IMG/VR virus record: IMGVR_UViG_2693429582_000026
Source of the DNA: a virus
Lineage: Duplodnaviria > Heunggongvirae > Uroviricota > Caudoviricetes
Length of the DNA stretch: 15,498 bases
Strand: one strand, 5' to 3'
Shown here piece by piece: positions 4,186 through 4,920 of the stretch. Both the position numbers and the translations under genes were made by a program. The stretch's first letter is position 1; the number at the start of each line of letters is the position of its first letter. Below the pieces are notes generated by a model. The model worked only from the letters and a program-made list of their open reading frames with translations. It had not been told where the DNA came from and made no database searches.

Positions 4186-4920
4186 TCAGTAGCGATGTAG
4201 TGAAGGAGGTAATTCTTTGTTCTTAAGCCTTACCCATGCGGAAAGATTCGTTGGTCCGTCTGGCTCATTAATATCAACATCTCGTGTGTGATTGATTAAA
4301 ACGTCTCTCGCCATTCCAATAACATACGAGAACTCATGACCGTAGTCGTAACATCTGCCGGAATAGTTCGATTGAATTTGCTTTAGCGCTGGATACAATT
4401 CGCGGAATAATGCCTGTGAGCGGTTAGCATAATCCCACAGCCATACAAGGCTGTCTGTTTCTTTTGCGGAAAGCCCGTTGAGCTTCTTCTCTTGTTTGCC
4501 AGTATTTTTCTCGCACTGGCTGAAATAGCAGTCTTCCAGTTTTTCGAACACATCCCACGCCTGATCAGTTTCGAGCATTTTGGCATGACGGGCTGCTCCG
4601 CGTTCTGTCCAGAGTATGAGGGAGCGGGCTTTCGGGGAAATTTGTAACCCTCTTAAAGATGGTTGCAAATTTTGTGAGTTACTTAAAGTAACCCGCAAAT
4701 TTTGTGAGTAGTTTAAAGCTACCCGCAATTCTTTAAGGTCATTACCAACAACTTTGAAAAAGTGTTTCCCTTCAACGAAGCGTACTTTGTTCTCATGATG
4801 ATTCTGGCGAATACGCACCGGCTCAGTGCCGTAAAGCTGCGCCAAAAGTTCGGTGGTAATAACAGGAATCTGGTTATGGGTGATCGGGGAGAGAGTTTCA
4901 ACAGAAATTTGAGTTGTCAT
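4186..4920 (-). CDS. ORF6N-domain protein (antirepressor-associated family), 244 aa, with internal 10-aa tandem repeats
   Basis: ATG at 4920 with GAGGG RBS. N-terminal [48 protein letters not shown] fits the ORF6N pattern (TxxLAxxYGT...NFxxNKxRFxEGKHYF). Confidence 0.6.
4636..4738. repeat. Tandem 30-bp repeats embedded in the ORF6N coding sequence (two well-conserved units plus degenerate flanking copies)
   Basis: Units at 4665-4694 (GCAAATTTTGTGAGTTACTTAAAGTAACCC) and 4695-4724 (GCAAATTTTGTGAGTAGTTTAAAGCTACCC) match at 25 of 30 positions. Degenerate copies at 4636-4664 and 4725-4738. They encode [20 protein letters not shown] peptide repeats. Confidence 0.7.

Follow-up and report, generated by a model that had tools for sequence, protein, structure and literature searches.

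Why should the gene for a phage antirepressor carry, inside its coding sequence, a row of 30-bp units that are each built around a near-palindrome? The question was raised by ant, located at 4186-4920 on the minus strand of IMG/VR virus record IMGVR_UViG_2693429582_000026, a stretch of 15,498 nucleotides (nt) from a member of the Caudoviricetes that was analyzed at full length and is termed the window throughout. Based on its open reading frame (ORF) and translation, Pfam matches and the annotation of its homologues, ant encodes an antirepressor-like protein of 244 amino acids (aa), and the tandem repeats were found to lie within this coding sequence. The product was assigned to the ORF6N and P22_AR_C families, as both Pfam profiles exceeded their curated cut-offs (ORF6N, aa 12-115, 68.3 bits, cut-off 27.8; P22_AR_C, aa 145-216, 95.5 bits, cut-off 22.4). 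The gene was identified as the 'Ant' gene from the nin region of Shiga toxin (Stx)-type lambdoid prophages, with 99.9-100% identity to Stx1a phage and Escherichia coli O145 genes, and its homologues in Stx phages and E. coli genomes are annotated in the databases as antirepressor or Ant. An earlier note on this DNA, made from its letters alone, had proposed that the repeats form either a protein-binding array embedded in the gene or a product of recent slippage and expansion. The analysis described here indicates that a palindrome at this site runs through the ORF6N antirepressor family, with arms that remain complementary while their sequence turns over.

Tandem palindromic units within ant

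Tandem Repeats Finder placed an array at 4665-4728 (period 30, 2.1 copies, 85% matches, score 86). On the coding (minus) strand, three in-frame 30-bp units were delineated, each encoding a decapeptide: u1 (4699-4728), u2 (4669-4698) and u3 (4639-4668). With a period that is a multiple of three and units that are arranged head-to-tail in one frame, the array is an in-frame coding tandem repeat. Units u1 and u2 were identical at 25 of 30 positions, and u3 matched each of them at 18 of 30. The two 30-bp units of 25/30 identity and their 10-aa peptides, as described in the earlier note, were thereby recovered in frame. Of the degenerate flanking copies that the note had added, the stretches at 4626-4641 and 4729-4740 yielded only weak matches (I4, 74% complementary), and the further copy that was found is the third in-frame unit, u3.

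Each unit was composed of a 27-nt near-palindrome plus a 3-bp linker, with 10 or 11 of the 13 arm positions forming Watson-Crick pairs, in agreement with the near-palindromic core noted before. The palindrome centers (4715, 4685 and 4655) each fell on the middle base of a TTA codon. The palindromes, all read on the minus strand, were: (i) that of u1 at 4702-4728, centered at 4715, with 10/13 pairs and the linker codon AAT at 4699-4701; (ii) that of u2 at 4672-4698, centered at 4685, with 11/13 pairs and the linker AAT at 4669-4671; and (iii) that of u3 at 4642-4668, centered at 4655, with 11/13 pairs. The inverted repeats extended beyond the units, with arms of 4666-4684 and 4686-4704 for u2 (I1, 84% complementary) and of 4638-4654 and 4656-4672 for u3 (I2, 88% complementary). 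Outer arms of TTTGCR...YRCAAA and a center of CTTTAAG were common to the three units; the inner arms differed among them, with only complementarity kept. Four of the five differences between u1 and u2 formed two compensatory pairs (A-T to T-A and G-C to A-T), and the fifth repaired a C.A mismatch. The left arms of the array were all alike, such that each can pair with any right arm, and the unit junctions were likewise palindromic.

The 15-mer GTTACTTAAAGTAAC, positioned at 4678-4692, had three matches in the window at up to 3 mismatches compared with 0.27 expected. When the whole 15.5-kb window was scanned for inverted repeats at equal settings, two pairs from the ant array (centers 4685 and ~4700) were the longest, and these were equaled in length by the ori iteron pair at 8329-8368 alone (19 nt, 74% complementary). 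The repeat observation is confirmed by these results and is far from chance. Folding and diversity data were collected for the whole array (4633-4728, minus strand; gene nt 193-288). When compared with shuffles, the fold of the plus strand was at -42.5 kcal/mol (z -4.07) and that of the minus strand at -31.4 kcal/mol (z -2.36), with the antisense strand folding better in 19 of 25 E. coli-type variants. Other repeats detected in the window included the lambda-type ori iterons inside an O-like gene (~8296-8386; period 20, 2.8 copies, consensus CCCTCGTTTTGAGGGAACCT, dyad arms 8329-8368), another palindrome of 26 bp at 8573-8598, and a short tandem repeat at 6316-6344 (period 13, 2.2 copies, TTACCATCGCTAC, score 35).

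To examine copy number, relatives were drawn from IMG/VR, GenBank phages, a collection of 5.8 billion proteins and complete E. coli genomes. The spacing between the EGKH and LWTERG motifs was found to be 39, 41, 43, 49, 51, 52, 59 (window) or 69 aa among these relatives. Alleles of one, two, three and four units were present among the 120 closest database proteins, and the matching spans in complete E. coli genomes were 193, 241 and 271 nt. The unit combinations of the E. coli alleles were u1, u1+u3, u2+u3, u1+u2+u3 and u1+u2+u2+u3, the last of these being a four-unit allele of phage F349 and O157:H7 strains in which the two u2 copies were identical at 30 of 30 positions. Recent gain and loss of whole 30-bp units is therefore real: copy number is polymorphic among near relatives, and the expanded allele has identical adjacent units. 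Of the possibilities raised in the earlier note, slippage and expansion is borne out by these E. coli phages and genomes, with a copy number of 1 to 4 units among E. coli and Stx-phage alleles. The 30-bp copy number also explains the 224-, 234-, 244- and 254-aa length classes of proteins annotated as 'Ant'. Taken alone, the tandem repeat is an ordinary in-frame length polymorphism.

A family-wide palindrome with covarying arms

To place the palindrome within the family, we added 80 genomic loci from other species (Salmonella, Pectobacterium, Photorhabdus, Acinetobacter, Chromatium, Roseospira and others) and 160 Firmicutes-type phage loci obtained via Bacillus and Lactobacillus phage queries. 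Folding energy was then scanned in a 33-nt frame across 130 representatives that share less than 80% aa identity and were drawn from Proteobacteria and from Firmicutes-type phages. At the columns of window residues 70-72, the mean energy was -9.2 to -9.7 kcal/mol, compared with about -1 to -3.6 kcal/mol upstream and values never below -5.9 kcal/mol downstream. The best hairpin of the domain was centered at this site (alignment columns 79-85) in 74 of the 130 representatives, and a hairpin of -7 kcal/mol or better was detected there in 106 of 129 (median -11 kcal/mol). The palindrome was also found in Bacillus, Clostridioides and Lactobacillus phages. The u1 position corresponds to this ancestral, family-wide site, as it aligns with the single palindrome of the one-unit alleles and of distant homologues. 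Across the family, the arms were 11-17 bp in length, and some homologues had perfect 15-bp stems in G+C-rich as well as A+T-rich genomes. The palindrome was centered at codon position 2 in 106 of 122 cases, as would be expected if one ancestral palindrome had been passed on via in-frame changes. Overall, the sequences compared indicate that one such palindrome, at a fixed position, is ancestral to the sampled ORF6N antirepressor genes.

Within the domain, the site falls in the segment whose length varies most (window aa 65-93). The encoded peptides were found to vary (RLTLSKSQ, RLVLNESQ, HRLSLSESV, RVTFSY, NRPETIGLV and others), with the palindrome kept by different arms. Two compositional features recurred: (i) the central 5 nt were 92% A/T compared with 55% in the arms, and 96% A/T where the arms were G+C-rich; and (ii) one stem pair was G:C or C:G in 105 of 109 sequences. 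Independently of one another, several lineages (Pectobacterium locus L108, Xenorhabdus L122 and Acinetobacter L099) also had two or three hairpins in tandem. In the Pectobacterium odoriferum locus, the junction of tandem perfect hairpins (CTGTTAAAAATGACAG, ~1721-1736) has a LexA-box-like core, CTGT-N8-ACAG, which is probably a by-product of a right arm followed by a left arm. A LexA box was rejected as the identity of the element, as this core was detected only between the tandem hairpins of this locus and in neither the window nor the single-hairpin genes.

The complementarity of the arms was not explained by the encoded peptide, as the hairpin energy of -10.7 kcal/mol in the native sequence rose to -4.0 kcal/mol on synonymous recoding and -3.6 kcal/mol on codon permutation. 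Covariation was examined in a gapless alignment (A4) of 109 distinct hairpins, in which a 12-pair stem was tested (1308 cells). Standard pairs occupied 86.9% of the cells, compared with 53.8% in shuffles and 29-39% when the arms were slid by 1-3 columns; the centering of A4 on predicted hairpins inflates this percentage paired, but neither the variety of pair types nor the slid controls. All 12 pairs varied on both sides, and the covariation score of 0.789 (vs 0.22) was reached by none of 500 shuffles. The element thus behaves as a coding quasi-palindrome, with arms that stay complementary within the coding sequence as the sequence changes. Among the covarying positions, the third base of a Val codon in the right arm changed with the first base of an Asn or His codon in the left arm (AAC..GTT in 39 cases and CAC..GTG in 20), which is beyond what protein selection can produce.

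The mismatches that remained on the coding strand were divided almost equally between G.T (57) and A.C (60) among the 1308 cells, even though the A4 hairpins were chosen by an RNA energy model, which rewards G.U. Had selection acted on a stem in the mRNA or an antisense transcript, one mismatch class would be expected in strong excess. In addition, an Rfam scan over the array returned no match at the gathering score, the best being rivX at 21.6 bits versus 100. The equal mismatch classes and the absence of an Rfam match point to a constraint on the symmetry of duplex DNA rather than on an mRNA hairpin. Thus, the sequence data argue that the constraint acts on double-stranded DNA, and on neither protein nor mRNA, with arms whose complementarity persists through the turnover of their sequence. 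The suspicion of the earlier note that more than coding constraint is at work was upheld to this extent, as homologues that differ in peptide retain the dyad by compensatory changes, including at synonymous sites. The outcome was the opposite of one in which homologues share the peptides and encode them by unrelated codons: here the peptides differ and the DNA dyad is kept.

Explanations for the retained symmetry

Several explanations were weighed for this symmetry, of which selection on the protein alone for a repeated 10-aa motif, with an incidental DNA dyad, is the most improbable. The units are in frame and their decapeptides similar, as such selection would have it; however, the peptides at the site are unconserved across the family while the dyad is conserved, the hairpin is lost on synonymous recoding, and synonymous third positions covary with partner first positions. 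Moreover, the Acinetobacter array is at least as similar to that of the window in nucleotides (87%) as in amino acids (85%), whereas the flank is 82% identical in amino acids and only 68% in nucleotides. A function of the hairpins in the ant mRNA or an antisense transcript, be it ribosome slowing, RNase III/RNase E entry or protection, or coupling to C4/IsrK, is also unlikely, if not to the same degree. The C4 RNA, c4-a1b1 and isrK elements directly upstream put ant under RNA control, both strands of the array fold better than shuffles (z -2.36 sense, -4.07 antisense), and covariation is the classical signature of RNA structure. Yet in functional RNA stems A.C is tolerated much less well than G.U, in contrast to the near-equal mismatch counts recorded here; the best Rfam match was rivX, far below its gathering score; the loop sequences of C4 lack complementarity to the units; and the stems are not followed by a terminator-like T run. 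A C4 RNA target was rejected on the basis of these non-complementary loops, as was a strand-specific RNA, since the antisense strand folds better in the E. coli-type variants but the family-wide mismatches are unbiased. No consensus promoter or terminator was identified within the array by a promoter/terminator scan, and inspection of the array by eye revealed no match to the CRP and IHF consensus. An in-frame heptamer of the classical -1 slippery pattern, T_TTA_AAC, is present at 4708-4714 (minus strand) in the u1 loop, ~9 nt upstream of the u2 hairpin. A -1 frameshift at this heptamer was rejected, as most variants lack the heptamer and the -1 frame runs into a stop codon almost immediately.

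Slightly more doubtful than a role in RNA is the protein-binding array that had been put forward in the earlier note, taken here as sequence-specific sites to be bound by a dimer of Ant, Roi, CI/Cro, or a protein of replication or partition. Dyad-symmetric units spaced by 30 bp, about three helical turns, would suit such sites, as would the outer arms and center common to the three units; lambda-type dyad iterons within the O gene of the same window provide a precedent, and ORF6N is itself a predicted DNA-binding domain. Nonetheless, the inner arms differ among three units of one gene, and symmetry through all 13 arm positions exceeds what a protein would need. No similar motif was found in the rest of the window, of which the cI-cro region and roi are a part: a search outside the array with the 15-mer core and the 17-mer arm junction, allowing up to 3 mismatches, yielded a single 3-mismatch site at 3405-3419, and by this measure the array bears no similarity to the operators of the phage's own immunity region. 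The Ant proteins of the window and locus L038 share a putative recognition helix, and yet their palindromes are of different classes, TTTGCGGGTAGC versus CACAGAGTAGC. Roi of HK022 reportedly binds a site inside its own gene (attributed to Clerget and Boccard, 1996). HK022 has roi without ant, however, and while roi-like matches were present in 64 of 82 E. coli-phage loci, roi was within 1.5 kb in only 4 of the 80 diverse genomic loci that retain the palindrome and was absent from the other 76. An inverted-repeat search of the window roi found none. A Roi binding site was rejected on these three grounds, namely HK022 lacking ant, roi lacking such a dyad, and roi rarely being near the palindrome outside E. 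coli phages. Likewise, the array does not resemble an iteron origin, as it has no conserved recognition sequence (u3 is 18/30 identical to u1 and u2, and the inner arms differ) and its host gene is an antirepressor, with no cognate initiator and A/T-rich unwinding region at the same locus. With inner arms that differ, no other copy of the motif, roi that is not a neighbor in most relatives and ori iterons located elsewhere, the iteron, operator or partition array appears, on the sequence evidence, not to hold.

The explanation we favor, and to which we assign an even chance, is a coding quasi-palindrome in a variable segment that tolerates indels, where template switching during replication would keep it and slippage would amplify it. 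A single 27-bp coding palindrome with its 3-bp linker would have been amplified tandemly and in frame, to 3 units here and 1-4 in relatives. Intramolecular template switching ('quasipalindrome correction') would use one arm as the template for the other at a rate exceeding the erosion of the dyad by point mutation, and would yield apparent compensatory changes in single events. Documented effects of template switching include the formation and upkeep of perfect stems, along with multibase compensatory changes (PMC8794818). As every left arm pairs with every right arm, the same hairpins may promote slipped misalignment, such that interchangeable arms would lead to gain or loss of whole 30-bp units. 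The protein would tolerate the palindrome, since the segment accepts insertions and nearly any sequence, and a sequence-specific binder would not be needed. Mismatches would then fall where a perfect partner imposes an unsuitable residue (e.g., CCA/GGG), consistent with coding palindromes being described as a compromise with protein function (PMC6649704). The data show the palindrome and its conservation, the covariation, the absence of strand bias and the copy-number polymorphism; the template-switching and slippage steps, and the lack of a function in cis, are what we infer from these patterns.

Several observations weigh against template switching as the sole cause. Retention of the palindrome in nearly all of ~130 diverged genes from two phyla is not obviously predicted by mutational drive, nor are the A/T-rich center (92% vs 55% in the arms) and the near-invariant G:C or C:G pair (105/109 sequences) predicted by it. 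The percentage paired in A4 is inflated by the way the alignment was centered, and template switching is proposed here from sequence comparison. In Acinetobacter chengduensis, u2+u3-like units at 1717-1776 of locus L099 were identical to window 4639-4698 at 52 of 60 positions (87%) between flanks of 52% nucleotide identity upstream and 68% downstream, where the protein was 82% identical; this island of nucleotide conservation could be due to lateral exchange or sequence constraint. Finally, the 3' edge of the array (window 4633-4640) is a sharp mosaic junction across the E. coli-phage loci (L002-L083), with 5' segments that are deeply diverged and 3' segments that are nearly identical, which would suit a role in recombination. 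Nucleotide diversity among 42 E. coli-phage alleles was 0.22-0.47 upstream of the array and 0.03-0.10 downstream, and 417 of 577 pairwise change points were at this edge.

The competing explanation with the strongest claim, though we hold it only tentatively, is that the palindrome is a functional hairpin or cruciform extruded from supercoiled or replicating DNA and read by its shape. Candidate readers include SbcCD, the phage Rap/NinG or RusA, HU or a recombinase; the role would be that of a recombination or module-exchange site, or of replication- or transcription-linked control, with extra copies modulating its strength. The DNA-level symmetry without strand bias, the arms of 11-17 bp with an invariably A/T-rich center that favor extrusion, and the single position across phyla are all in line with such a function, as are two features of the E. 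coli phages, namely the amassing of change points and the diversity step at the 3' array edge, and the conservation of the array as a nucleotide island between Acinetobacter and E. coli genes. DNA secondary structures at coding recombination breakpoints are described for Plasmodium var genes (PMC3936766). Counter to this, change points in two Firmicutes-type sets clustered at the start of the gene and at 60-120 alignment columns downstream, and not at the palindrome; thus, a recombination role, if any, is not general. Mismatched stems of 10-13 bp are also poorly extruded under physiological supercoiling, no candidate recognition protein accompanies the gene throughout the family, and a self-maintaining palindrome fits the same data. 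A shape-recognized hairpin or cruciform that acts in cis in the ORF6N antirepressor genes of at least two phyla, whether as a break or recombination site for exchange of the N-terminal module or as a supercoiling- or replication-sensitive switch for ant, is accordingly a possibility to which we give appreciably less credence than to template switching.

Precedents, genomic setting and significance

Quasipalindrome correction, as known from the Ripley model, E. coli hotspots and surveys of template switching (Monttinen and Loytynoja 2022, PMC8794818; Lavi et al. 2018, PMC5941160), is alike in its short imperfect inverted repeats and its multibase compensatory changes at the DNA level without strand bias. 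Unlike those cases, the ant repeat lies within a protein-coding domain, at a site that is fixed family-wide in Proteobacteria and Firmicutes phages, and is tandemly amplified. The coding palindromes of Nematomorpha mitochondria (Mikhailov et al. 2019, PMC6649704) are similar in that both arms encode protein and palindromy is in compromise with the amino acids; however, they are long (up to 284 bp), perfect and numerous, and are distributed over conserved parts of many genes within a single genome, whereas the ant palindrome is one short element (27 nt) of a variable segment, found in many genomes but in a single family of phage genes. In-frame coding variable-number tandem repeats, or contingency repeats, resemble the array in a unit that is a multiple of three, 1-4 copies among near-identical alleles and identical adjacent units, but the ant unit is itself a palindrome that is universal in the family as a single copy, such that a pre-existing element, not a simple-sequence tract, was amplified. 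The lambda-type ori iterons in gene O are also tandem dyad units that lie within a coding sequence, where the encoded protein is variable, and their copy number differs among lambdoid phages. In contrast to the iterons, whose conserved sequence is recognized by O and which are next to an A/T-rich unwinding region, the ant array keeps complementarity only, has no cognate initiator and has units that differ within the array. The Plasmodium var genes (PMC3936766) share with the E. coli-phage alleles a hairpin-forming coding sequence at junctions of variable and conserved mosaic segments; the junction coincidence was not seen in the Firmicutes-type sets. No prior description of the ant palindrome was found in the literature that was searched, and the phi24B Ant paper makes no mention of it. 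A family-wide, covarying coding palindrome that is maintained at the DNA level thus appears to be undescribed so far.

On the minus strand, ant is located in an RNA control cassette like that of P1 immI, with an order of promoter, isrK/c4-a1b1 plus terminator, C4 RNA, ant and terminator, followed by roi and ninG. The C4 antisense RNA gene, at 4973-5056 just upstream of ant, was recognized by Rfam RF01695 (66.7 bits vs a gathering score of 45). An isrK-type small RNA that overlaps a c4-a1b1 target element with a terminator was identified at 5082-5171, with RF01394 (75.5 bits) and RF03163 (50.5 bits) above their gathering scores. Upstream of this element, a promoter scan detected a sigma-70-like promoter (5165-5194, minus strand), and just past the ant stop codon an intrinsic-terminator-like hairpin is present at 4148-4169 (minus strand; 9-pair stem, then a T run). 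Terminator-like hairpins at 4148-4169 and 5087-5103 (minus strand) flank the C4 RNA-ant segment, with the promoter and isrK-type element upstream of the latter. The cassette between ninE and roi may be an autonomous, moron-like transcription unit. The next gene downstream, roi (3389-4117), is 82% identical to HK022 roi. A homologue of ant in phi24B has been linked to efficient prophage induction (PMC3064807). In regard to the N-terminal ORF6N domain, no sequence homologue was found in the PDB, and a structure model from a shallow alignment was unusable (predicted local distance difference test score, pLDDT, of 34). The ORF6N N-terminal module and its palindrome were found fused to at least three unrelated C-terminal ends (loci L038, L065, L076, L077, L080 and L081), namely P22_AR_C ending in ...LPPSLHRY, a second type ending in ...LKSLRARQFEF and a third ending in ...LVERLMQF/L, and some prophages have two tandem ORF6N genes.

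At a practical level, the number of 30-bp copies offers a simple polymorphic marker among Stx prophages. More broadly, covariation is usually read as proof of a functional RNA; here, a signal of textbook strength is present in a coding phage gene and, as judged from the mismatch spectrum, acts on DNA. If purely mutational, the ORF6N palindrome would be an unusually clean natural case of template switching that sustains a coding palindrome across phyla, as well as a caution for scans that seek RNA structure in coding regions. If functional, it would represent an undescribed class of shape-specified cis element in the regulatory genes of temperate phages, including the ant gene of Shiga toxin phages, and one located exactly where N-terminal modules are swapped. 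In this latter case, the tandem amplification of 1-4 copies in E. coli Stx phages would tune the cis element or generate diversity in length and sequence.

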